From: a virus
Lineage: Duplodnaviria > Caudoviricetes
Direction: 5' to 3' (one strand)
Length of the DNA stretch: 64,000 bases
Virus record (IMG/VR): IMGVR_UViG_3300021255_003284
Location: 1-64,000 of that record
The translations under genes and the position numbers were made by a program. Shown one piece after another: positions 4,478 to 21,562 of this stretch. The notes beneath the pieces were generated by a model that had not been told where the DNA came from, ran no database searches, and saw only the letters and a program-made list of their open reading frames with translations. Within the stretch, counting starts at the first letter, position 1, and each line of letters starts with the position of its first letter.

Positions 4478-4882
4478 ATGTCCAAGATCACCATCGCTGG
4501 CAACGCCGTCATCGTCACCGCCGAGACCAAGCTGACTGACCTGCAGAAGATCCAGCGCTACAACCCCAAGGCCCTGACCCTGATGGGCGGCGAGGACAAC
4601 AAGGAGCCGGTTTTCCGCGTCGTGGTGACGCCCGGCGTGTCCGGCAGCATCGACAGCTTCGGCGCGGAATTCGGCGCGGCGACGCGTGACGAGTCCGCCA
4701 AGGCCACGATGACCATGGCCCTGCCGGCCGAGGCGGGCGACGACGTGGTCGGGTATGTGGCCGACAAGCTGGGCGCGGCCATCACTGCGCTGAACAAGCT
4801 CGAGGCCGGGTTCCCGGCGGTCCTGCAGCAGATCGACGCCGACCGCGCCGCGGTCATGGCGAACATCACCGTCCTGGGCTGA
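4478..4882 (+). CDS. hypothetical protein at the head of the Ubl cluster
   Basis: AGGAGG SD, strong codon bias. Confidence 0.85.
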   Translation: MSKITIAGNAVIVTAETKLTDLQKIQRYNPKALTLMGGEDNKEPVFRVVVTPGVSGSIDSFGAEFGAATRDESAKATMTMALPAEAGDDVVGYVADKLGAAITALNKLEAGFPAVLQQIDADRAAVMANITVLG

Positions 4883-4903
4883 TCGGGTTTCAGCCGCGAC
4901 CCT

Positions 4904-4933
4904 GACCCCGCGGGGTTTCCCGCGGGGTCTTTC
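4904..4933 (+). terminator. Rho-independent terminator
   Basis: GACCCCGCGGG-GTTT-CCCGCGGGGTC then TTTC. Confidence 0.7.
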
Positions 4934-5004
4934 TGACCGCACCGCTGTGGTGGTGGAACATAACGACCCTGACCGCGCTCCTGTGGGGGCGGAACTCATC
5001 GACC
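4933..5004 (+). repeat. two tandem 36-nt units, each with a TGTG-loop hairpin
   Basis: CTGACCG-[CACCGC TGTG GTGGTG]-GAAC..CGACC and CTGACCG-[CGCTCC TGTG GGGGCG]-GAAC..CGACC. Confidence 0.75.
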
Positions 5005-5055
5005 AGTCCGGTTTCTGAAAAACATTACGATCGGGTTTTAGAGGAGGATTTCATT

Positions 5056-5289
5056 ATGATTAAGGTTACTGTCGGCAACAACGTCACCCGCAACACCGTG
5101 ATCATCACCGAGAACACCACCGTCCGCGAGGTCCTGGAGAACAACGGCGTTTCCACGCAGACCGGTTCGCTGATGCTGTCCGGCGCGGTCCTCACGCCCG
5201 ATCAGGTCGACATGACCTTCGCCGACCTGGGTTTCCGCGGTGAGGCTTCCGCCACGCTGTACAACGTCGCCAAGCGCGACAACGCCTGA
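5056..5289 (+). CDS. ubiquitin-like (beta-grasp) small protein
   Basis: 77 aa; IKVTV..NTVII..TTVREVLENNGV..LML SGAVL..MTFADLG pattern; lies upstream of E2/JAB/E1; ends KRDNA. Confidence 0.6.
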   Translation: MIKVTVGNNVTRNTVIITENTTVREVLENNGVSTQTGSLMLSGAVLTPDQVDMTFADLGFRGEASATLYNVAKRDNA

Positions 5290-5307
5290 GGTTTTCCCGG
5301 TCTTTTC

Positions 5308-5362
5308 GGGATGGAGCCATGGCCCGTATCGCGGCCGGTTTCAAGGCTCCATCCCGGTTTTG
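5308..5362 (+). terminator. hairpin/terminator after the Ubl gene
   Basis: CGGGATGGAGCC...GGCTCCATCCCG followed by GTTTTGTT. Confidence 0.55.
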
Positions 5363-5459
5363 TTGGAAAATCAGATTCCCTGAATCGCCCGTGACGCGGG
5401 CTTTTCAGGGGATTTGATGAGATACATCTTATGTTCCCTAAGAAAGGAGTGCAGGGGTT

Positions 5460-6926
5460 TTGTTCAAGACGGCAATTACGAGCACGCCGTACACCACGGC
5501 GGCGGCTGACGGGTACTTCCACAGGATCGCCATTGAGGGCATGCCGTTGTACGGCGACATGTCCATCGTCGCCACGCTGCGGGCGCTTCTGTATAAGCGC
5601 ATGCCGGCCGAGGCGACGCTCTCAGTTTACCACGGGCTTTTGACGCCGCTCTCCGGTACGAGCGGGCTGACCGAGCGGTATCTCAGCCGGTTCATCAACT
5701 TCGCGTTCGGCGGCGGCAGCCAGAACCAGACGGCCCTGTCCATCTACAACGCGAGCTTTGAGCTCGCGAAGGAAACCCTCGACTACATGCACGAAAACCT
5801 GCACCGGGTCTGCCCGGGTTTCCATGAGATCGAAAAGGTCAACGCATTCTACAAAAAGGTTTTCGAGGTGAGGTGTTTCGTCAATGAGGACTCAGGCCAG
5901 TCCGTCCTCATCGTCGACCACCTGAACCTGCCGAAGTACCACCTCCTGCAGTCCGGCATTCTCGCGTATATCCCGTGGTTTTTCAAGCTCGAAGACGGGA
6001 TCACGGATGACGAGCGCGCCCTGCTCGAGTCCCTGCGCAAGCCCGATCCCGCCGACTATCTCAAAATCCTCGCCCGCATGGTCGGGTCTGTCGACCTGCG
6101 GTCCGAATTCATCCGGTCGTCGCTCGACGGTTTTGAGGATTCGCTCACGCAGGAAGAGCTGAACGCCGCCGAGAGAAACATGAACGACATCAATCAGGAG
6201 CTCGACCGCCTCAATGCGGAATTCGCCCGCATCCTGACGAAGAAGCGCCATTACGAGGCGCTGATGAACGGGCTTATGAACCCGTCAGTCCACCGCGAAT
6301 CCGCGCTGATGGAGTATTTCCTCGGCAATAAGAACCTGATCCTCAGGAGCTTTACGAACGACAATCTGGTTTTCTCTGTCCTCGCTGACCTCCAGTTCTT
6401 TGACGAGGACGCCATCGAAGAGTATCTCGGCAACCCGCGCTCGATCATCTACCTGCCGCGCGGCAGATCGTGCGAGAACATCATCCCGCACGATGACATG
6501 CGCCGGCTTTTCAGCGCGGTTTTCATCGATCGCAGGGTCAAGGTCAAGTTGTGCGCCACGTATTCCCTGTCCACGCACGGCCGGGTCGCCGGCCTCAGCG
6601 GCCAGGTTTACGGCCAGGAGTACGACGGCCGGATGCCCAACCCGCACATCAACAGCTATTCGTGCCTCGGCGATTACGCCCCGGCAATCCAGGCTTTCGT
6701 CGACCATTACGATTATGTCGGCGCGGTGAACCAGTGCGAGGCGTCGTGCCGGTCGATCAATGTGAATGAGCATGCCACGATGTCTGTTTTTATGGACGGG
6801 GTTTATGGTATCAACGGCGTCGTGCCGTTCCGGTGTTTCGAACTGCCGGACGGTCGGATTTTGACAGCCAAGGGAGCGGCCGCCGCGCTGCGTGAGATCG
6901 ATGGGGTAGAGGAGGAGTGCGCGTGA
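5460..6926 (+). CDS. coiled-coil protein with putative C-terminal prokaryotic E2-like domain
   Basis: PNPHINSYSCLG resembles the E2 (H)PN/H...CL active-site motif; central coiled coil; gene context. Confidence 0.55.
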   Translation: MFKTAITSTPYTTAAADGYFHRIAIEGMPLYGDMSIVATLRALLYKRMPAEATLSVYHGLLTPLSGTSGLTERYLSRFINFAFGGGSQNQTALSIYNASFELAKETLDYMHENLHRVCPGFHEIEKVNAFYKKVFEVRCFVNEDSGQSVLIVDHLNLPKYHLLQSGILAYIPWFFKLEDGITDDERALLESLRKPDPADYLKILARMVGSVDLRSEFIRSSLDGFEDSLTQEELNAAERNMNDINQELDRLNAEFARILTKKRHYEALMNGLMNPSVHRESALMEYFLGNKNLILRSFTNDNLVFSVLADLQFFDEDAIEEYLGNPRSIIYLPRGRSCENIIPHDDMRRLFSAVFIDRRVKVKLCATYSLSTHGRVAGLSGQVYGQEYDGRMPNPHINSYSCLGDYAPAIQAFVDHYDYVGAVNQCEASCRSINVNEHATMSVFMDGVYGINGVVPFRCFELPDGRILTAKGAAAALREIDGVEEECA

Positions 6927-7732
6927 GCAAGTTTATCAAACTGACCGCCGAAGCGGTCGCGTCCGCGGTTGCGGATTTTGAGAAGTACATCCGGGATTTC
7001 AAGATGTCCGACGGCAAGGTGTCATTCACCAAGGACATCGCCAGCAAGAACGCCCGGGCCAAACTCTGGTTCACGCCCGAGGCGTGGGTCAAGACCCAGC
7101 TGCTCGTCCAGTCGTTCGACAGCGAGATCGCGTGGCACGGCATTTGCGTCCGGAGCGAGGTGCCCGGGGAATTCCTGATTTCTGACGTTCTGGTTTATCC
7201 TCAGACCGTCACCGGCGCGACGGTGACCACCGACCAGAAGGGTTATCAGGACTGGCTCATGTCCCAGCCGGACGAGGTTTTCCAGAACCTCCGCATGCAG
7301 GGTCACAGCCACGTCAACATGGGTGTTTCGCCCTCGTCGGTCGACATCAACGACGAAAAGGCGACGCTTTCCCAGCTCACGGACGACATGTTCTATGTGT
7401 TCCTCATCCACAACAAGCGCGGCGACATCACGGTGCGGATCTTCGACCTCAGGGAAAACACGCTCTACGAGACGGCGGATGTGGATGTCGGCGTCGTCGG
7501 TATCGACATGAACGGGTTTTTGTCCTCGGCTAAGGGTGCGGTCAGTACAGCGCCGGTCCGTCCCGTGACTGCGCAACCGGCCTCCGCCGCGCCCGCTTCG
7601 GCATGGCTTCCGAAAAAGCCCGCCAAGGAAAAGCCCGCCGAGAAGAGGGCGGTCAAAAAGTACCCGCTCTCGTGGGCGGACCTCGACGACGACGAGTCCC
7701 CGTACGGCTATTCCTACTATCCCGGTTTTTAA
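6923..7732 (+). CDS. JAB/MPN+ metallo-isopeptidase
   Basis: Upstream Glu (DSEIAW) plus exact HxH-x7-S-x2-D (HSHVNMGVSPSSVD). Confidence 0.85.
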   Translation: MSKFIKLTAEAVASAVADFEKYIRDFKMSDGKVSFTKDIASKNARAKLWFTPEAWVKTQLLVQSFDSEIAWHGICVRSEVPGEFLISDVLVYPQTVTGATVTTDQKGYQDWLMSQPDEVFQNLRMQGHSHVNMGVSPSSVDINDEKATLSQLTDDMFYVFLIHNKRGDITVRIFDLRENTLYETADVDVGVVGIDMNGFLSSAKGAVSTAPVRPVTAQPASAAPASAWLPKKPAKEKPAEKRAVKKYPLSWADLDDDESPYGYSYYPGF

Positions 7733-7744
7733 GGAGGGTTTGTC

Positions 7745-8368
7745 ATGACCAGACAGGAATTCATCGATGACATCACTTACATCGGCGATCTCGTAAGGTT
7801 CTGCGACGACGTCGGCTGCGACATCTGCGGAGGGGTTTACGACGACGAAGCGCGAGACGACTACCTCGACCAACAGGTTTGCGATTGGGCTCACGACGAA
7901 GCGTGGTACGAACTCCGCGACATGCTCGACAACATCCCGACCGGGTACGACTGGTGGATCATCAATGACTACGGCGACTGGAATGGCATCGACGACGACG
8001 AGTTCGATCGCCTCAAGGACGACGTGCTCGACTGGGCCGACGAGCGCGGGGTTTTCGAGGACGATGACGATGACGACGAGGATCACACCATCCCGAACGC
8101 GGCCTACCGCGGTCCCGGGTACGAGCAGGAGACCGTCGCGTATGACCCCGACGCCGGCGACGGCAATGACTGCGCGGTTTTCGAGTTCGATGGTTCCGAC
8201 CTGATCAGCCCGGTGCGCATCGATCAGGTCGAGTGCGATGACGAGCTCGTCGGCGAGAACGGCGTGGAGTACGAGGTCGAGACCGAGATAACCCTGCGCT
8301 GGGTCCCGCCTGTTCAGTCTGATCCGGATCTCGCCCCGCTGGAATCGGCCGTCGGCATTCTTCTCTGA
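7745..8368 (+). CDS. highly acidic hypothetical protein
   Basis: 207 aa, poly-Asp tracts, CxxC near N-terminus, SD. Confidence 0.8.
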   Translation: MTRQEFIDDITYIGDLVRFCDDVGCDICGGVYDDEARDDYLDQQVCDWAHDEAWYELRDMLDNIPTGYDWWIINDYGDWNGIDDDEFDRLKDDVLDWADERGVFEDDDDDDEDHTIPNAAYRGPGYEQETVAYDPDAGDGNDCAVFEFDGSDLISPVRIDQVECDDELVGENGVEYEVETEITLRWVPPVQSDPDLAPLESAVGILL

Positions 8369-8388
8369 TAAACGAAGGGAGTGGGTTT

Positions 8389-9063
8389 ATGAATCTGTCC
8401 AAGTCCTACGAGTTTTTCAAACCCGAGTCGCTCGACGCCCGCGTCCACATCATCGGGTGCGGGTCTGTCGGGTCTACCATCGCCGAGAATCTCGCCCGGT
8501 GCGGTGTCACGAAGATGACGCTGTACGACTTTGACAAGGTCGAGGCGCACAACGTGCACAACCAGATGTTCCGCGCCTGCGACATCGGCAAGCCCAAGGT
8601 CGAGGCGCTCAAGGACATCCTGACCGAGATCAACCCGGAAATCGGGAACGACTTGGTTCTTCGGCCCAAGGGCTGGACGGGACAGATCGTGTCCGGCATC
8701 ATCGTGCTGGCGGTCGATTCGATCGAGCTGCGCCGTCAGATCGTCGAGGCGCACATGGACAGCGTGTTCGTTCGCGCGGTTTTCGACGTCCGGACAGGGC
8801 TTACCGACGCCCAGCACTTCGCCGCCAACTGGTCTGACCCGGCTTCCAAACACAACCTCCTCCAGTCGATGCAGTTTTCCCACGACGAGGCCACGGTTGA
8901 AACGCCGGTTTCCGCCTGCGGCGTCACGCTCGGCGTGGTCACCACGGTCAGGCTGATCTGCGCGCTGTGCGTGAACAACATGATCGCGTTCGCCAAGGGC
9001 GAGGGACTCAAGAAGTTTATCCAGATCGACGGTTTTTCATTCCTGCTCGACGCGTTCTCCTGA
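8389..9063 (+). CDS. ThiF/MoeB/E1-family adenylyltransferase
   Basis: IIGCGSVGS, YDFDKVEAHNVHNQ, KPKVEAL, AVDSIELR; candidate catalytic Cys in VSACG. Confidence 0.9.
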   Translation: MNLSKSYEFFKPESLDARVHIIGCGSVGSTIAENLARCGVTKMTLYDFDKVEAHNVHNQMFRACDIGKPKVEALKDILTEINPEIGNDLVLRPKGWTGQIVSGIIVLAVDSIELRRQIVEAHMDSVFVRAVFDVRTGLTDAQHFAANWSDPASKHNLLQSMQFSHDEATVETPVSACGVTLGVVTTVRLICALCVNNMIAFAKGEGLKKFIQIDGFSFLLDAFS

Positions 9064-9078
9064 CATGACACGTTTGAT

Positions 9079-9412
9079 CGGTATGACGGACAGCGAACCG
9101 CAATGTAATTCATGACTGGTTTTCCATTCATGGCTTTCGCTGTCAGCGGAAGTGACGACTTGACCGGAAAGGGGAATCCCTGGGAAGAGCTCAGCTGCAG
9201 CCTCCAGAGCGCCTTCGGTCTCGAGCCCGTGTCATCTGAACAAGGCACAAAAGGGAAAAGAACCGATGAGCAGGCAACTTTCCTACGTTCAATCCCACAT
9301 TGGAACATTCCCACCCTGAAGCCAAGTCGTTCCACCAGCTCTCGCGCTGCCAATAACCTCGCATGCCGACACGCACACCGCAAGTGATTCCGTTCGCGAG
9401 TCCGTCATACCG
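9079..9412 (+). ncRNA. retron-like ncRNA unit 1
   Basis: Perfect 13-bp terminal IR (9079-9091/9400-9412); GGTTTTCC-loop hairpin 9111-9132; conserved core GCTTTCGCTGTCAGCGGAAGTGACGACTTGACC 9133-9165. Confidence 0.75.
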
Positions 9413-9444
9413 CCGTCCCGGAAATCGCAAGGAGGTTTTTTGAG

Positions 9445-9693
9445 ATGAAGAAGGCCGACCCCATAACGATCGCCCTGTTCGCGCTCCTCATCATGGTTCT
9501 GTCCGCGTTTTCCGCGTTCAGCGCCGGGTTTTCCGCAGGCATATCCCATGCCATCACGGACAGCGTGATCTGGACGGTCGAGTGCTATGACCCGCTCGAC
9601 CCGTACGCCAACGCCCGTAACGACGGCACCGATCAGACAATCTACATCGAGCTCGACGGCGAGCTCTACGAACACGGCATGTTCCAAGGTTGA
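9445..9693 (+). CDS. small membrane protein
   Basis: AAGGAGG SD, N-terminal hydrophobic helix. Confidence 0.7.
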   Translation: MKKADPITIALFALLIMVLSAFSAFSAGFSAGISHAITDSVIWTVECYDPLDPYANARNDGTDQTIYIELDGELYEHGMFQG

Positions 9694-9707
9694 TAGGAGG
9701 GGTTTTT

Positions 9708-10004
9708 ATGAACCGTTCAGGCACGCCGCTGGACAGTTGGATTCTGACACAGAGTTGGGTCGACCCGTTCGACCATATGTACGACACGACCCATATTGTC
9801 GGGGTTTTTACGTCACTTCACGATCTGCAGGCATATATGCTCCGGAATGTCGGGCATACGATGGTGCAGGGCCATGACTGTTACGAGCTGAGATACGAGT
9901 CGGCCGACCGTACGGTCAACGCGCGGTTTTGCGCATGGCGCTGCGATGTCCCGAAGATCGAACACGACTGGGACGGCGAATTTAAGCCGATCTATGATGA
10001 CTGA
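9708..10004 (+). CDS. hypothetical protein
   Basis: AGGAGG SD before ATG 9708. Confidence 0.7.
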   Translation: MNRSGTPLDSWILTQSWVDPFDHMYDTTHIVGVFTSLHDLQAYMLRNVGHTMVQGHDCYELRYESADRTVNARFCAWRCDVPKIEHDWDGEFKPIYDD

Positions 10005-10009
10005 CAAAC

Positions 10010-10328
10010 GATGAACCGCAATGTGATGCGTACACGGTTTTCCGTATACGGCTTTCGCTGTCAGCGAAAGTGACATCTTGACCGAAGAGGCGAGGGGTAG
10101 AAGGACAGTACCCGACAGAGGTGGCACCTCAGGACACCAGGTCCGCAGCAATAGTTCAAGCATCAGCGTAAGCGAAGTATCACGATTTCGCTGCTAAAGA
10201 CCAGGGGTAAGAGCGAGAAAGTAACCAGCCACAGCTCGACAGCGCTCAAAAACCCTGGCTAAGCGATCAACATCGTGACTCAAGCCTGCCTTCGATCGTT
10301 GCTCGCCCGCAATGTGATTCGGTTCATC
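10010..10328 (+). ncRNA. retron-like ncRNA unit 2 (immediately upstream of the RT)
   Basis: 9-bp IR GATGAACCG/CGGTTCATC; hairpin 10029-10050; core GCTTTCGCTGTCAGCGAAAGTGACATCTTGACC 10051-10083. Confidence 0.75.
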
Positions 10329-10356
10329 ATGATCAATACCCGGCATTTGAAAGGAG

Positions 10357-12756
10357 TTGTTGAGCACGTTATACGTCACGGTTTTCCAATCGCCGAGGGT
10401 TCATCAGATGACGCTGGATGAGTTCCTGTTTTCCGAACCAGCTCCGGCGTCGGTTTTTGTGAATAATGAGAACAACACTCGCACGTACACGACCGACCGC
10501 GCGACCGACAGGCTTCACCGGGCTTTTGGCACCGACCTCGTGGCGCTCAAGCTCGCGCTCGGAGCGTTCAACAGAGACACGGAGCACCTGCGCGCCGTGC
10601 CGCGCCACAGTCTGTACAGGGAATTTTATATCCCCAAGTCCTCCGGCGGTCTGAGAAAGATCGACGCGCCGAACGACGAGCTCATGGCCGCGCTGCGCCG
10701 GCTCAAGGGCATTCTCGAAACCGACTTCCACGCGCTCTATCATACGTCGGCTTTCGCGTATGTCAAACACCGTTCGACGGTCGACGCGGTCAAGCGGCAC
10801 CAGATGAACGAGTCCAGGTGGTTTGCCAAGTTCGACCTGAGCAACTTCTTCGGCTCGACCACGCTGGATTTCTGCATGAGCCAGCTGGCGATGATCTACC
10901 CGTTCTCCGAGCTGATCCGCTGGGGCGGCGGGGAAGAGCTCAGAAGGGCGCTCGAGCTCGGGTTTCTGGACGGCGGTCTGCCGCAGGGCACGCCGCTGTC
11001 GCCTAAAATTTGGGCCTCAGCAGAGTGATCTGCTGTGATAACGCGGTGAACCCGCATATGCGGGGTGTCGCACTTACGTGGTGCGGCTAACGGGGAAACG
11101 CTAAACGCTAAAAGAATTAGGAGGTTACAAATTGGGAGGTTCTACACTGCACGACCTCACCGGTCAACGCTTCGGCTGGCTGGTCGTCATCGAACGGGCT
11201 CCCGGCGTACCCAAGTCGAACGGGAAGTTCCGAACGATGTGGCGGTGTGTCTGTGATTGCGGCAATACAACTATTGTCCCTGCATCCAGTCTTAAAGATG
11301 GGCACACTACGTCGTGTGGTTGCAAACCGAGGCCGACTAAAGCGCCGGATCTGATCGGACAAAGCTTTGGACGTCTTACTGTCCTGGCGCGATCCGGTTT
11401 TTATCGAGGTGGTACACACAGAGAGGCACAATGGCTATGTCGATGCGACTGCGGGAATGAAGTTGTGAAAACGACTACATATCTGCACAGATCGAATTGC
11501 CCATCCTGTGGATGCGCCAAGTCTGATAAGACGTCTGAGGTAAAACGGCTTGATCTCGTCGGCAAAAGGTTTGGTTTCTTGACTGTCGTTAAGTCGCTTC
11601 CGTCAAAGAAGACAAGCGGAGGCAATCCCGTGGCAATGAACGAATGCGTATGTGATTGCGGGAATAAAACGATATGCTCAACGAACAGCCTGATTTGTGG
11701 CAACACAAAATCGTGTGGATGTCTTAAGAGCTCTTACGGGGAAGCGCTCGTGACGGACAGTCTCAAAAGCCTCGGCGTCCGGTTTAAGCGCGAGTTTACC
11801 TTTGGCGACCTGAAAAGCGATAAAGGGTGGCCTTTAAGGTTTGACTTCGCGATATTTGAATCGGACACAGACAGGCCATCGTTTCTGATTGAATACCAGG
11901 GCGTGCAACATTTCAAAGAGGTGGGCTCTGGGTTATTTGCTGGTTTCGGAAGTCAACAGCGAGACGTTACTGACGATCAGAAACGCGAGTATTGTCGCAA
12001 GAATGGGTTTCCTCTATACGAGATTCGTTACGATGAAGATGTCTGTGCACGATTGAACGAAATCCTTTCAACGCATGCCAATCCCGTGCCAAGCTCTGGA
12101 AATTCCGGAGAAGGTGTAACGACTATTCCGTAAGGAAGTAGCCGACGGGTGAAATTCCCGCCGGCGAAGTGCCGCGCATCTCGATATCGAGATGAAGATA
12201 TAGTCTACTCCCCTAATGAAATATCGGGAAACCGAGGGTTCAAAGGACACTCACCAACATTTTAATGATCCCCATCGACCACACGCTGTCCAACTCGCTC
12301 CGCGATTTCGGCGGCAAACACTTCATCTACACCCGGTATGCCGATGATTTCCTGATCTCGAGCCGCACGGATTTTCGGTTCAGGGATGTCGAGCAGCACA
12401 TCCGCGATACGCTGGCGCGGTTTTCCGCCCCGTATATCATCAAGCCCGAGAAGACGCGCTACGGTTCCTCGGCTGGCTCCAACTGGAATCTCGGGCTCAT
12501 GCTCAACAAGGACAACGAGATCACGATCGGATCGAAGAAGAAGCGCCAGTTCCGCGCCATGCTCACGAGCTTCGTGCTCGATACGCGCAACGGTAAGCCG
12601 TGGGACCCGTCCGACATCCGCGTCATGGACGGGCTTCGCTCATACTACCGCATGGTTGAGGGCAAGACGATCGACGACATTGTCGACGCCATCGGCCGGA
12701 AATTCGGCGCGGATATCCCGCGTATGATCAAGGCCGGGCTCAACCCGACCGCTTAA
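10357..12756 (+). CDS. retron-like reverse transcriptase, spliced: join(10357..11004,12247..12756), about 385 aa
   Basis: IPKSSGGLRKIDAP, SAFAY, DAVKRH (NAxxH-like), KFDLSNFFGS, LPQGTPLSP|TLTNIL, YTRYADD, KPEKT, NLGLMLN. Confidence 0.9.
11005..12246 (+). mobile_element. group I intron in the RT gene
   Basis: Exon ends in U with P1 GCCU/GGGC (U-G pair); intron ends in G; Q-like AATCCCGTGCCAAGC; P7 GACTA/TAGTC; S element AAGATATAGTC; splicing restores frame and motif. Confidence 0.88.
11132..12133 (+). CDS. intron-encoded homing endonuclease (3x CDCG modules plus PD-(D/E)xK/Vsr-like domain)
   Basis: Repeated DL-G-RFG-L-V..C-CDCG..SCGC; C-terminal RFDFAI..LIEYQGVQHF. Confidence 0.8.
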   Translation: MGGSTLHDLTGQRFGWLVVIERAPGVPKSNGKFRTMWRCVCDCGNTTIVPASSLKDGHTTSCGCKPRPTKAPDLIGQSFGRLTVLARSGFYRGGTHREAQWLCRCDCGNEVVKTTTYLHRSNCPSCGCAKSDKTSEVKRLDLVGKRFGFLTVVKSLPSKKTSGGNPVAMNECVCDCGNKTICSTNSLICGNTKSCGCLKSSYGEALVTDSLKSLGVRFKREFTFGDLKSDKGWPLRFDFAIFESDTDRPSFLIEYQGVQHFKEVGSGLFAGFGSQQRDVTDDQKREYCRKNGFPLYEIRYDEDVCARLNEILSTHANPVPSSGNSGEGVTTIP

Positions 12757-12775
12757 TAAGAGGGGGTATTTCATC

Positions 12776-13048
12776 ATGGGTATCATCGCGTTTTCCGAAG
12801 GTATCGTCGGCGCGTGCGACAGGCTGCGCGGCGCGTCCGTGGGCGAGTTTCTGAACGCGCTCAACGTGCTCGGCGAGGTGCTCGCTCCGTCCACGATCGA
12901 GGCCTTGCGCGCCGCAGACCAGTCCGAACCGATCAGCGACGTGCTTTTCCGTAACTTCAGGAACAGCGTAGCGCTCAAGTGCAGGGTGGAATGCAACGCG
13001 ACGATGCGCCGCGTTCTGACGAGAAAGGAGGATCTCAATGCGGTCTGA
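12776..13048 (+). CDS. hypothetical protein
   Basis: SD; directly after the RT. Confidence 0.65.
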   Translation: MGIIAFSEGIVGACDRLRGASVGEFLNALNVLGEVLAPSTIEALRAADQSEPISDVLFRNFRNSVALKCRVECNATMRRVLTRKEDLNAV

Positions 13049-13340
13049 GATTTCGCGCATAGCCAGAAAGCACATGATGGACGCGCTCGCAATGGCGGCC
13101 ATGGAGGCCATGTACATATCCAATAACGAGGCCGTGCCCATGATCAAGTACTCCCGGGAAACCGAGGAAACGATAGCCCGGTTTTCCGACTTCGACCGCG
13201 AGTATCACGGGCTTTTGCCCGACGGTGAATACTTCTACATCACGCGCAAGGGTCAGCTGCTCTACGCCGTCAACGTGACCTGCGACAGCCCGCTCACCGC
13301 GTTTTCCGAGCTGACCCAACTCATCGCCCGCAAGTTCTGA
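13038..13340 (+). CDS. hypothetical protein
   Basis: AAAGGAGG SD. Confidence 0.75.
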   Translation: MRSEISRIARKHMMDALAMAAMEAMYISNNEAVPMIKYSRETEETIARFSDFDREYHGLLPDGEYFYITRKGQLLYAVNVTCDSPLTAFSELTQLIARKF

Positions 13341-13352
13341 CACCAATACAAA

Positions 13353-13575
13353 GGGCCCGCCCATGTCGATCGGATCGAACGAAACACGGTTTTCCTTCGT
13401 CACCCTCCTGTCCATATACGTTCGACCGCGTTCGCTGTCAGCGGACGTAACGCATTGACCTACCTGGTTTTCGCAGACCGGCGCGAGGCTTCCGAATTCC
13501 ATTAAGAACGGGTTACACGATGTAACCCTTGCTTAATGGCATTCAGAAGCCAGCACCATCTGGATGGCCGGGCCC
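13353..13575 (+). ncRNA. retron-like ncRNA unit 3
   Basis: IR GGGCCCGCCCAT/ATGGCCGGGCCC (11/12); core GCGTTCGCTGTCAGCGGACGTAACGCATTGACC 13428-13460; long msd-like hairpin 13487-13551. Confidence 0.75.
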
Positions 13576-13659
13576 GCCATCCGCATTTTCCATCATTCGC
13601 CTCGGCAAGTAGGTCTCCCGACATCACGGGAAGCGCCGAAGCTGCGGCACCCAACGGTT

Positions 13660-13863
13660 CCGCCCACCCATGAGGATCGGCTATTCTGGTTTTTCAGTTC
13701 AGCCGCTTTCGCTGTCAGCGGAAGTAACGCAATGACGGTTTTTTCGCCGAGGCCGCCGGACTGGCGCGCGACATTGTGCGCGCCATTAAGTCCGGCTGTC
13801 TCGGCGGACACGCAAAGTCTCACGCACGTAAGGCAAGGCGCTCAACTTTGGATGGCTGGGCGG
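13660..13863 (+). ncRNA. retron-like ncRNA unit 4
   Basis: IR CCGCCCACCCAT/ATGGCTGGGCGG (11/12); hairpin 13678-13705; core GCTTTCGCTGTCAGCGGAAGTAACGCAATGAC 13705-13736; long hairpin 13745-13806. Confidence 0.75.
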
Positions 13864-15164: not shown

Positions 15165-15186
15165 GTAAATGATGAGGAGGGTCTTC

Positions 15187-15714
15187 ATGCCAAAGAGGTC
15201 TGGCAAGTACGACATCGGCCGGCGGTTCGGTCGGCTGGTGATCGTCGGTATTCCCGAATCCGACAAGCGAAAGCGCATCTGCCGGTGTGACTGCGGCCAC
15301 TTTGTGACCGTGCTTAAGCACAATCTCGGCCGCACGGTTTCCTGCGGCTGCCGCCGGTCCGAGGCGGCCAGCGACACCGGCCGCAGGCTCATCGCGGAAA
15401 ACGCGGCCCAGTCCAGAGACGCGAACGCGCGCTACGACACCAACTTCAACGTCATCGCCACTGAAACGCCGCCTCGCAACAATCATTCCGGGAAAAAGGG
15501 CGTCTGGTACGACGAAAAGCACGGCGTGTGGCTGGCGTACATCTCGGTTCACCGCAGGCGTCACCACCTCGGCACGTTCAGGTCGTTCGCCGACGCCGCG
15601 CTGGCCCGGGATAACGCCGAACAGAGGTATTTCTCGCCGCTGATCCAGGCATGGAACGCCGAGCGCGGCGGAGCCGACCACGCCTCGGCCAGGCGCAGGG
15701 CCGTCGGCTTATGA
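15187..15714 (+). CDS. CDCG module plus AP2-like DNA-binding domain protein
   Basis: CRCDCG..SCGC; NNHSGKKGVWYD..WLAYI..HLGTF..AALARDNAE. Confidence 0.8.
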   Translation: MPKRSGKYDIGRRFGRLVIVGIPESDKRKRICRCDCGHFVTVLKHNLGRTVSCGCRRSEAASDTGRRLIAENAAQSRDANARYDTNFNVIATETPPRNNHSGKKGVWYDEKHGVWLAYISVHRRRHHLGTFRSFADAALARDNAEQRYFSPLIQAWNAERGGADHASARRRAVGL

Positions 15715-15835: not shown

Positions 15836-16330
15836 ATGTCGAGACACAAGAGGACGGATGATTATGGAAAGCGCTACGGTCGGCTGACTGTCATCAGTCA
15901 CGACCCCGACAACCCGCGTAACCTGCTCTGCCGCTGCGATTGCGGGCGCGTCGTGTCCGTCGTGGCGGGCAATGTCCGCTACGGTTCGACGCGGTCGTGC
16001 GGCTGTCTTCACAGCGACTTTCAGCGGGAAAACTGCGTGTCCAACTTCGACGGGTATTTCGAAACGATGCGCCAGTCCGGATCGAATCCGGCCCGGCTTT
16101 TCAAGCACGCCGTCCGGCGCGACAGCAAGACGGGTGTCGTGGGCGTCACCATCTCGCCGCGCAGCGGGAAGTTCGTCGCCCGCATCACGACAAACTACAA
16201 GACGATCGAGCTCGGTTCGTACGACACGCTGGCCGAGGCGGCCGAGGCGCGCCACCGCGCCGAGCTTAAGTATCACGAGCCGATCGTCCGCGAGTGGCTC
16301 GCGTCGAAAGGCGGTGTAAAAAGCGCGTGA
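15836..16330 (+). CDS. CDCG module plus AP2-like DNA-binding domain protein (paralog of 15187)
   Basis: CRCDCG..TRSCGC; SKTGVVGV..KFVARI..ELGSYDT..AAEARHRAE. Confidence 0.8.
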   Translation: MSRHKRTDDYGKRYGRLTVISHDPDNPRNLLCRCDCGRVVSVVAGNVRYGSTRSCGCLHSDFQRENCVSNFDGYFETMRQSGSNPARLFKHAVRRDSKTGVVGVTISPRSGKFVARITTNYKTIELGSYDTLAEAAEARHRAELKYHEPIVREWLASKGGVKSA

Positions 16331-16644: not shown

Positions 16645-16894
16645 CAAGATCTCGCTCCGCATGGAAGCCGCGTACATCGTCGAGCTTTTCGAAGTCCTGC
16701 TCGACCTGCACGGCATTTCGATCCCGTCTGATGAAGACCCTTACGCCGACTCCGACAACCCGGCCCCGATCACCGGCTGTGACTACGGCGACCTGCTCGA
16801 CAATGTCACCGACATGCTTTACGACATCGCCGAGCGGATCAGGGGTGGCGCTGAGATCGTCAGGGATTTTTACGCTGAGGAGGATGATGAATGA
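16637..16894 (+). CDS. acidic hypothetical protein
   Basis: AAGGAG SD; coupled to iscS. Confidence 0.7.
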   Translation: MPDKISLRMEAAYIVELFEVLLDLHGISIPSDEDPYADSDNPAPITGCDYGDLLDNVTDMLYDIAERIRGGAEIVRDFYAEEDDE

Positions 16895-18081
16895 TCTATC
16901 TCGACCACGCCGCGACGACGCCTCTTGAGGAGCCGGTTTTCGCGGCCATGTTCCCGTACCTGCGCTACAATTTCGGCAACCCGGGTTCGCTACACACCTA
17001 CGGCCGGGCCGCTAAACAAGCCGTCGACGCGGCGCGCGAATATGTCGCAGCGTTTTTCCACACGACGCCCGAGCACATCATCTTCACATCCGGCGGCTCC
17101 GAGGCCAGTTCGCTGGCCTTTGCCCAGATCGGCGGCATCCGCAGCCCGGGTTCGCCCGGTTCGCCCCGCGCGGTCATTACGTCTCTGGCCGAGCACGACT
17201 CGGTCATCCGCGCCGCGATCGCCGCCCGGGCTGACAAACGATACGACCTGATATCGTTCATCGCGCCGGGCTCTGACGGAGCCGTCACACTCGGCGGGTT
17301 TTTGGACGCCGTTGAGCGAATCGGACACGACCCGGTTTTCGTCTCCTTGATGTACGTTAACAACGAGATCGGCTCGGTTTCCGACATCCCGGCGATCGCG
17401 GCGTACTGTCACGAACACGGCATCACGCTGCACGTCGACTGCGTGCAGGCCGCCGGGTTTCTCGATCTGGATTCGTCCGCAATCCCGTTCGATTACGCGT
17501 CTGTCTCGGCGCATAAGATCGGCGGGCCGAAGGGGATCGGCTGCCTTTACCGGCGTGATACCGGCCCGCTGACGCCCATCGTGTACGGCGGCGGTCAGGA
17601 ATTCGGCGTCCGCGGTGGGACGGAAAACGTCCCAGCCATCGTCGGATTTGGCGCGGCCTGCCGGTGTGCGCTCGAAAACCTGTCAGAGCGAGCCAGCACG
17701 GCGTCAAAGCGCATGCTGGGTTTTTACGAAACGCTCGTCCGGATGATGGACGGGTATCAGATCGGCGACATCCTGCACGTCAACGGCGCGCCGCCCGACA
17801 AGTCGCCGGGCAAGATCCTCTCTCTCCGGTTCGACGGGCTCGACGCCGAGTCGCTCCTGCTCATGCTCGACGCGAACGGCGTATGCTGTTCGGCCGGTTC
17901 TGCCTGCCACGCGCACGAGCACAAGCCCAGCCGCGTCCTGACGGCACTCGGTTATCCGGACGATCAGGTGATGTCTTCTATCCGGTTTTCGTTCTCGCAC
18001 ACGACCACCGAGCAGGAAGTCGTCGAAGCCGCGCAGACCACGGCCCGCTGCGCGTGGATGCTTCGCGGAAAAAACTTTTGA
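16891..18081 (+). CDS. iscS: cysteine desulfurase (NifS/IscS group I)
   Basis: YLDHAATTP, FGNPGS, FTSGGSEA, HVDCVQA, SAHKIGGPKGIG (PLP Lys), GGTEN, SAGSAC. Confidence 0.93.
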   Translation: MIYLDHAATTPLEEPVFAAMFPYLRYNFGNPGSLHTYGRAAKQAVDAAREYVAAFFHTTPEHIIFTSGGSEASSLAFAQIGGIRSPGSPGSPRAVITSLAEHDSVIRAAIAARADKRYDLISFIAPGSDGAVTLGGFLDAVERIGHDPVFVSLMYVNNEIGSVSDIPAIAAYCHEHGITLHVDCVQAAGFLDLDSSAIPFDYASVSAHKIGGPKGIGCLYRRDTGPLTPIVYGGGQEFGVRGGTENVPAIVGFGAACRCALENLSERASTASKRMLGFYETLVRMMDGYQIGDILHVNGAPPDKSPGKILSLRFDGLDAESLLLMLDANGVCCSAGSACHAHEHKPSRVLTALGYPDDQVMSSIRFSFSHTTTEQEVVEAAQTTARCAWMLRGKNF

Positions 18082-20620: not shown

Positions 20621-21562
20621 ATGTACAACACCGACGTCAAATCGCGGTTTATCCAGTCGTACAGTACGAGCCTGACGGTCAGGCGCGCCTGCATCTCGCT
20701 GTTCAACGCGCTCCAGCGCTACGAGGAGGCGTGGGGCGCTGACCTGTGCACCCGTTCATCCGAGGTTCTTCAGCCCATCATCGACAAATACGTCGGCATT
20801 CGCGACAACGCGCGCGGCATCAGCGTTTCGATCATCAAGGCGTACATCAAGTGGTGTGTCGACAACGGCGTTCCCGGCGCGGTCGACGGGCTTTCCGGCG
20901 TGGTTTTTGACTTCGTGCCAAAGATCCGCAGCCAGATGCTCGCCAACCCGACGCACCTCAAAAAGTGCCTCGACGAAACGTTCAACCCGGAATCTGACGG
21001 CGCGACCGACATGCTCCTTCGGTGCTTCTGCTATCTGGCGTACATGGGTCTGCCGGAAAACGAGATCCTGCCGCTGCGCGTATCCGATATAGACTGGCAC
21101 AATATGGTCGTCCATACCGGCGGCGAAGAGTATCAGATCGTCCGCGAAGCCGTTCCGACGCTGCGCTTCTGCGCGAACAGTCCGATCCTCAAGCTCAAGC
21201 ATCCGCATTACGAGACGACCGTCGAACGCACGGTTTCCGACGCCCTGATGCGCGGCGGCCACGGCGTCGTCACGCTCAGCGCGCTGCGCGTCAGCCTGTC
21301 CAGAGCCACGGCGATGGCCGTATCGCTCGGCCAGTGCGGCGTGTCGCTCAGTTATGGGAGGCTCTGGCTTTCCGGGTTTTTCTACCGGGCTTACCAGCAA
21401 GAGATATCCGGTTTTCCGCCTGACTTCGAGTCGGCCGCGACCGATCGAGCCATGCCGTCCGGACCGGAGATGGACGACGGTACGGCCAGAGCAAAGATCA
21501 AACGCGCGGCGAGGGATTTTGAGCGCGACTACGAACAATGGAAGCGGGCGTTCTACGCCTAA
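20621..21562 (+). CDS. tyrosine-recombinase-fold protein, MrpR-like lytic-cycle repressor candidate
   Basis: SAM-like N-terminal region plus LAYMGLPENEILPLRVSDID (Int box I-like, lacking the catalytic Arg); no HxxR; own strong promoter. Confidence 0.55.
   Translation: MYNTDVKSRFIQSYSTSLTVRRACISLFNALQRYEEAWGADLCTRSSEVLQPIIDKYVGIRDNARGISVSIIKAYIKWCVDNGVPGAVDGLSGVVFDFVPKIRSQMLANPTHLKKCLDETFNPESDGATDMLLRCFCYLAYMGLPENEILPLRVSDIDWHNMVVHTGGEEYQIVREAVPTLRFCANSPILKLKHPHYETTVERTVSDALMRGGHGVVTLSALRVSLSRATAMAVSLGQCGVSLSYGRLWLSGFFYRAYQQEISGFPPDFESAATDRAMPSGPEMDDGTARAKIKRAARDFERDYEQWKRAFYA

Follow-up and report, generated by a model that had tools for sequence, protein, structure and literature searches.

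Bacterial ubiquitin-like conjugation has so far been described as a weapon of the host against phages (Bil, Cap2/Cap3 and probably Bub). What, then, are genes resembling such a pathway doing in a phage, directly upstream of a retron-type reverse transcriptase (RT)? The question is raised by positions 4478-9063 of IMG/VR record IMGVR_UViG_3300021255_003284, which derives from an uncultured gut phage. The window analysed here is the first 64 kb of this 108-kb record, which is rated 92% complete. Six co-oriented genes on the + strand were found in the region from a listing of open reading frames (ORFs), among them those for a ubiquitin-like (Ubl) protein, an E1, a JAB peptidase and a putative E2-like carrier, and they are followed by an array of the RT and non-coding RNAs (ncRNAs). 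It is, in our judgement, reasonably probable that this cassette encodes a ubiquitin-like conjugation pathway which is inherited as one block with the retron-type RT and works together with the RT/ncRNA array. The features, all on the + strand, are as follows.

4478-4882, + strand: p134, a conserved protein of 134 amino acids (aa) (ORF listing, tblastn).
4904-4935, + strand: GC-rich hairpin followed by a U-rich tract, resembling a terminator or attenuator, after p134 (fold compared with shuffles).
5056-5289, + strand: Ubl, a predicted ubiquitin-like beta-grasp tag of 77 aa, ending in K-R-D-N-A.
5307-5405, + strand: a pair of strong hairpins that have U-rich tails, following the Ubl gene (fold compared with shuffles).
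5460-6926, + strand: p488, 488 aa, TTG start; the Cys402 codon is at 6663-6665.
6917-7732, + strand: JAB/JAMM (MPN+) metallopeptidase, 271 aa, GTG start (motif, Rpn11 profile match).
7745-8368, + strand: acidic protein of 207 aa, accessory and not core.
8389-9063, + strand: minimal ThiF-type E1, 224 aa, with a single adenylation domain (Pfam ThiF).
9079-13863, + strand: retron-type RT and ncRNA array, with RT exons at 10357-11028 and 12265-12756 (RVT_1, PADLOC retron RT matches).

All six ORFs are real genes, and protein-level homologues in the same order were found in 81 phage loci and in 34 loci from metagenome-assembled genomes (MAGs). An initial annotation, made from the sequence alone, had named a beta-grasp-like protein, a 488-aa protein with an E2-like motif, a JAB peptidase, an acidic protein and an E1. 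Each of these was found at its place on the + strand, while the list proved incomplete, as the 134-aa gene at 4478-4882 has to be added.

Linkage of the cassette to the RT was followed from both sides. A JAB-anchored set was obtained by scanning IMG/VR from a two-sequence JAB alignment; 151 relatives were found, 80 loci were fetched and, with the addition of MT835544.1, 81 loci were compared. For an RT-anchored set, the best 80 of at least 548 relatives were taken, 70 of which had more than 6.5 kb of upstream DNA. The RT itself was assigned by RVT_1, and its best PADLOC scores were to retron types II-A, I-A and III-A. In the JAB-anchored set, p488, JAB and E1 were present in all 81 loci with their order unchanged, and the RT was found downstream in 79 of them, the other two loci being short (~10 kb). 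From the RT side, the cassette was found in 70/70 loci with enough upstream DNA. Adjacency to a retron-class RT is thus conserved, and the link suggested in the initial annotation holds in so far as the distributions of operon and RT depend on each other. None of the conditions that this annotation had named as refuting it was borne out. The window's own neighbours were seen near the RT less regularly, the downstream genes in at most 7 and the upstream genes in 12-20 of 56 loci; the cassette and the RT form a unit that is conserved while its surroundings vary. In a distant faecal phage of 35 kb, MT835544.1, the gene order is retained at 23-54% identity, this being the sole relative among the INPHARED phages. 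In GTDB genomes the module was found in MAGs only, mostly of gut Clostridia, and a few of the contigs are 244-359 kb long, which suggests prophages. The RT is one intact ORF in 79/79 relatives, and the intron-split RT of the window is therefore a local peculiarity. An HNH gene lies inside the RT intron at 11132-12133, the phage genome being rich in homing-type nucleases.

The tag was examined by structure prediction. The AlphaFold2 (AF2) model of the 77-aa protein (predicted local distance difference test, pLDDT, 88) has strands at residues 2-7, 12-17, 38-41 and 64-71 and a helix at 23-29, and the mean pLDDT drops to 67 at residues 71-77. Among the top 50 Foldseek matches listed, nearly all are ubiquitin, SUMO, NEDD8 or other Ubl structures. 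The protein is predicted to fold as a ubiquitin-like beta-grasp with a flexible C-terminal tail, in agreement with what had initially been called from motifs.

The C-terminus of the tag was surveyed in 89 unique homologues out of 181 loci. An x-N-A end, usually D-N-A, is kept in most of them; about half terminate precisely at N-A and ~30 carry 1-4 further residues. Five homologues run in frame past N-A into a protein of ~130 aa, which in two loci, L024 and L028, is the homologue of p134. In these two (L024:4945-5565 and L028:6462-7082) tag and p134 have changed places, and a single reading frame runs through the tag and on into the p134 homologue, giving a protein of 206 aa. Such a fusion would be a natural precursor, needing a cut after Asn-Ala. 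Two rare variants read ...K-A-D-G-G-I-H and ...K-A-D-G-A-R at the N-A position, which can therefore hold Gly-Gly like that of classical Ubl proteins. Lys73 of the tag is invariant. Ubiquitin-type modifiers before processing have a conserved end with disposable tails or fusions, until a peptidase exposes the reactive end. Because relatives of the tag append 1-4 residues or a whole in-frame partner, and because two variants carry Gly, the conserved N-A end with its variable tails and fusions looks, on sequence grounds, like a C-terminus that undergoes processing and activation. An Ala-ended tag has precedent, since Cap2 adenylates the Ala C-terminus of E. cloacae CdnD (...GRFA).

The activating enzyme is recognised without difficulty. 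Pfam ThiF (PF00899) matches the E1 at 2.3e-24 over profile positions 20-221 of 238, the PADLOC Cap2 'E1-E2' models match at 5e-18, and a profile of 29 homologues searched against the PDB retrieved UBA5 (1.6e-16), followed by UBA1, UBA6, MoeB, TcdA, MccB and Cap2. The GxGxxG motif, D47, D49, N58, Q59, K70, D110, R135 and C177 are invariant in alignments of 29-59 sequences, and the protein has the Rossmann-type ATP site of the ThiF-MoeB adenylyltransferases. The ThiF/E1 call is therefore solid, as had been stated initially. The enzyme belongs to no named subfamily, because every NCBIfam match scores under the family cut-off. A separate Cys domain would not fit into its 224 aa, in which respect it resembles Cap2, ATG7 and the UBA5-type E1s. 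Cys177 follows a poorly conserved stretch and stands just before a helix that aligns, non-significantly, to the UBA5 segment following the catalytic Cys of UBA5; this placement of Cys177 is presumptive. Cys177 probably takes the tag as a thioester.

In the JAB protein the motif E70...H130-x-H132-x7-S140-x2-D143 was found with all five residues invariant in 34 sequences, so that the JAMM metal and catalytic residues are all present. Searched against the PDB, the JAB profile matched Rpn11 (E=0.003), and both the Glu and the HxH...S..D motif were aligned. The single sequence reached Rpn11 at E=0.11 and gave no match in Pfam, and Pfam Prok-JAB matched weakly in 11 of the 34 family members. By motif and profile the assignment as a JAB/JAMM peptidase with a complete metal motif, which the initial annotation had made, is solid.

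The 488-aa protein, p488, is likely to be an E2-like carrier, a view that rests on fold, motif and context and not on sequence homology. Three parts are predicted: an alpha/beta N-domain (aa 1-224), a long coiled coil (225-272) and a UBC/RWD-like C-domain (278-488). In the AF2 model (pLDDT 84.5, predicted template modelling score 0.50) the coiled coil is a 48-residue helix, and the C-domain has the topology a-b-b-(insert)-b-b-loop-Cys-a-a-a, with RWD domains as the best structural matches. RWD domains belong to the fold group of the E2 enzymes. The last strand is followed by the motif P393-N394-P-H396-I-x3-[FYH]-x-C402-[LM]-G, in which, across 54 diverse sequences, H396 and C402 do not vary and the conservation of N394 is at least 90%. 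N394 is located 8 residues ahead of C402, the spacing of canonical E2s, where the Asn of the HPN motif stands 8 residues before the catalytic Cys. The TTG start of p488 is confirmed by the Met-Phe with which all members of the family begin. The family comprises by profile 2523 clusters at 50% identity (E<=1e-3) or 1322 (E<=1e-30). Besides acting as carrier, p488 is the probable target selector.

Searches for relatives of p488 outside its own family gave little. No family match was found in Pfam, PADLOC, PHROGs or NCBIfam; the best 150 proteins listed in a full-profile search were full-length family members only, with no bridge to other families; a whole-model Foldseek search of the PDB returned noise only, for instance RNF213 at a template modelling (TM) score of 0.13; and the single match in BFVD was an uncharacterised phage protein. 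The ESM atlas gave a weak Prok-E2_D lead only. A Prok-E2_D protein, the only one yielded by a sample of 301 Bacillota genomes, was compared with p488 by hhalign, and in the top local alignment, which is non-significant, the N...C-[IL]-G motifs of both were paired. When related loci were sought from p488, whether by its alignment or by individual proteins, nothing usable was obtained. A link of p488 to a known E2 family by sequence was not obtained in any of the profile and library searches. The E2-like PNPH..SCLG motif named in the initial annotation is real, with its invariant H396 and C402, and RWD domains are the best fold match.

The two remaining genes differ in their constancy. By tblastn p134 was detected in 71/81 loci, always adjoining the Ubl gene, and in several relatives it is fused in frame behind the tag. 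No match was obtained for it in Pfam, the PDB or NCBIfam, and its ESM atlas model has a pLDDT of 0.46. It was also considered as a paralogue of the Ubl, which was rejected at an hhalign probability of 0.2%. p134 is a probable partner or substrate of the tag. The acidic protein was detected in 57/81 loci, many of which place its gene 5-7 kb downstream and not between JAB and E1, and it is absent from L002; because it is so often displaced or undetected, it is not counted as core. The composition of this 207-aa protein (7745-8368) recalls DNA-mimic anti-restriction proteins.

The layout of the genes gives some indication of how they may be expressed. The last four genes (p488, JAB, acidic protein and E1) are closely packed, the JAB start overlapping the p488 stop by 10 nt, while the p134 and Ubl genes are each trailed by ~170 nt. 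The hairpin after p134 has a folding energy of -27.3 kcal/mol (z -4.25; 0/200 shuffles equal it), and the two hairpins after the Ubl gene have energies of -35.9 kcal/mol (z -3.7) and -23.4 kcal/mol (z -5.6), neither being equalled by any shuffle. This arrangement would fit a high output of p134 and Ubl, with fewer transcripts reading through to the enzyme genes. In the gap that separates the E1 stop (9063) from the first position of the array (9079), no fold beating shuffled sequence (z +1.1) and no terminator-like structure was found.

From these observations the following pathway may be proposed. The 77-aa tag, with its gene bracketed by strong hairpins, would be produced in excess, and JAB would trim tailed or p134-fused forms and expose the conserved ...Asn-Ala end. 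E1 would adenylate this C-terminus and probably hold the tag as a thioester on Cys177, from which it would be transferred to Cys402 in the UBC/RWD-like C-domain of p488. The N-terminal region and the coiled coil of p488 may then select a target onto which the tag is moved, and JAB might be able to reverse the mark as well. In this scheme p134 would be a stoichiometric partner, whether as main substrate or as cofactor. The cassette would cooperate with the adjoining RT/ncRNA array, occupying the position of the effector genes of bacterial retrons. We infer the thioester chemistry, the existence of protein targets and any physical coupling to multicopy single-stranded DNA (msDNA) from the folds, motifs and conservation described above. 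The biological effect may be counter-defence, exclusion of rival phages or prophage-borne defence. A more specific version would make the cassette the effector arm of a new class of retron carried by phages. DNA copied from several interchangeable ncRNAs would gate or guide p488 in placing the Asn-Ala tag on selected targets, for instance on defence proteins of the host or on components of rival phages. This version is advanced tentatively and is rather unlikely on present grounds.

Several points weigh against a conjugation pathway working with the RT. The C-terminal Gly usual for Ubl modifiers is not present, the tag ending in D-N-A. p488 is not linked to any E2 family by Pfam, PADLOC, NCBIfam or PDB profile search, and the hhalign probability with the Prok-E2_D protein is 0.2%. 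For p134 no recognisable fold was obtained, and neither an E3 nor a target was identified. One locus, L095 (CAUDCW010000003.1, 244,891 bp, from an Oscillospiraceae MAG), has the cassette, but an RT-protein query found no RT within 8 kb of it or anywhere in the MAG; the cassette can therefore probably exist alone. Moreover, the loci all come from related gut and rumen phages, and the co-occurrence could partly be inherited synteny. In L095 an RRXRR-HNH protein is encoded downstream of the cassette.

The main alternative is that the cassette is a self-sufficient Bil-like tagging system and the retron a separate accessory which shares the same conserved accessory island. That Bil, Bub and Cap2 systems function without any RT speaks for it, as do L095, the distance of 6-7 kb by which the RT is displaced in L040, L088 and L103, and the possibility that the RT array has promoters of its own. 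It is difficult to reconcile, on the other hand, with the near-total co-occurrence seen from both anchors (79/81 and 70/70) among flanking genes that are mostly unshared, with the retention of gene order at 23-54% identity in a different type of contig, and with the lack of a terminator between E1 and the first ncRNA. We regard such independence as improbable, though worth keeping in mind, and prefer the reading of cassette and RT as one working unit.

Two further explanations retain the E1 and the JAB peptidase and change what they do. JAB-type trimming is known from sulfur-carrier systems (CysO-Mec+, QbsE-QbsD), and the Ubl and E1 might accordingly be a ThiS/MoaD-type sulfur-carrier pair, trimmed by JAB and serving a thio-modification or a cofactor step. 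The ThiF-like scores of the E1, the class-V aminotransferase of the cysteine desulfurase family at 16891-18081 and a weak MogA-like character of the N-domain could be read in this way. Known sulfur carriers, however, end in Gly-Gly and the tag in Asn-Ala; just 3/56 relatives have the desulfurase-like gene close to the RT; no rhodanese, PP-loop or MoaE-like partner was seen; all NCBIfam matches of the E1 fall below the family cut-offs; and a conserved Cys-bearing UBC/RWD-like protein is always present. A sulfur-carrier role is thus very unlikely. Alternatively, the E1 might act like MccB or PaaA, both of which are among its PDB relatives, and modify the C-terminal Asn of the carrier after removal of Ala by JAB, to give a nucleotide-linked or cyclised product. 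Although the nearly invariant Asn at the penultimate position would suit such chemistry, about half of the homologues stop at Ala, which is the simplest mature end, the G-G and G-A variants indicate a ubiquitin-like end, and the substrate would be a folded 77-aa beta-grasp and not a short peptide. We consider this the least credible of the explanations and very unlikely, and return to the ubiquitin-like conjugation pathway as the preferred one.

The cassette region sits among non-structural genes of the phage, with a gene for an HU-type DNA-binding protein upstream and HNH endonucleases and unknown genes downstream. Two neighbouring paralogous HNH endonuclease genes are found at 15169-15714 and 15836-16330 (+), matching phrog_374 and phrog_99. 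The aminotransferase at 16891-18081 (+) is a 396-aa class-V enzyme (PF00266, 6e-58) of the family that includes NifS and IscS; it may feed Fe-S assembly for the phage NrdG, or a sulfur relay. The gene at 20621-21562 (+) encodes 313 aa; the N-terminal core-binding domain of the product is of the MrpR type (PF22822, 2.6e-11), and an integrase PHROG matches weakly. The protein may be a tyrosine recombinase, and a temperate phage would be expected to have one.

A sizeable and varied set of phages from gut and rumen carries its own version of a machinery known as a host weapon, marked by a minimal E1, a probable carrier that no domain library recognises, an Asn-Ala tag and a near-obligate link to a retron-type RT. 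If proteins are indeed tagged, bacterial viruses would be using the logic of ubiquitin for their own ends, retron biology would gain a partner module of a new kind, and a compact, orthogonal system for conjugation would be at hand whose tag does not end in glycine. If the effector reading were also true, nucleic-acid-programmed ubiquitin-like tagging would be deployed by a virus. Testable roles are in any case provided for two protein families that are unrecognised by Pfam, PADLOC, NCBIfam and PHROGs.

How, finally, does the cassette relate to systems already described? The literature search turned up no paper that joins a retron to an E1/JAB/Ubl set, and none that reports such a set in phages; one eLife paper mentions both components, and their pairing is not described there. 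As in bacterial retrons, a retron-class RT and ncRNAs adjoin a conserved set of non-RT genes, as effectors do, but here the cassette is upstream and the element is phage-borne. We know of no described retron type with an E1, JAB or Ubl effector. The PRTRC systems of plasmids and integrative and conjugative elements (ICEs) are likewise mobile-element cassettes with a ThiF-like enzyme. Membership in PRTRC was rejected, as only the E1 matched, to PRTRC_ThiF (TIGR03736) at 1.1e-7 and 31.5 bits against a cut-off of 144.75, and no match to PRTRC proteins A, C, D, E, F or ParB was found among the six cassette proteins. The Bub (6E/DUF6527) enzymes use oxyester (Ser) chemistry, occur as JAB-E1, Ubl-E2 or E2-E1 fusions and include the serine protease BubE. 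The fusions of the tag, which would be cleavable, recall Bub, whereas the cassette genes are separate, neither Cys177 nor Cys402 varies, and a BubE-like gene was not seen (no Pfam DUF6527 match).

The two remaining systems are nearer. With Cap2/Cap3 of the type II antiphage systems that signal through cyclic oligonucleotides (CBASS), the cassette has in common a minimal E1 in which no domain is inserted at the crossover loop and the putative catalytic Cys lies on that loop, a JAB partner and an Ala end, which in CdnD can be adenylated. In contrast to CBASS, the E1 and the putative E2 are not joined in one protein, the substrate would be a beta-grasp tag that is free and not the tail of a CD-NTase, and neither a CD-NTase nor a CBASS effector lies within the cassette. 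BilABCD are bacterial ISG15-like anti-phage ubiquitination operons (10.1101/2023.09.26.559546, 10.1101/2024.11.21.623953). The Bil E1 has an IAD-AAD-CYS architecture, whereas the E1 of the cassette is a single ThiF domain of 224 aa; the probable carrier is a three-part protein of 488 aa that does not match BilB in sequence; Asn-Ala and not Gly forms the end of the tag; an extra conserved protein of 134 aa is present; and the cassette belongs to a phage and has a retron RT linked to it. Each of Bil, Cap2, Bub and PRTRC therefore has a defining feature that the cassette does not share. Among them Bil is the closest in function, and Cap2 is the closest in the size of the E1 and in the tolerance of an Ala end.

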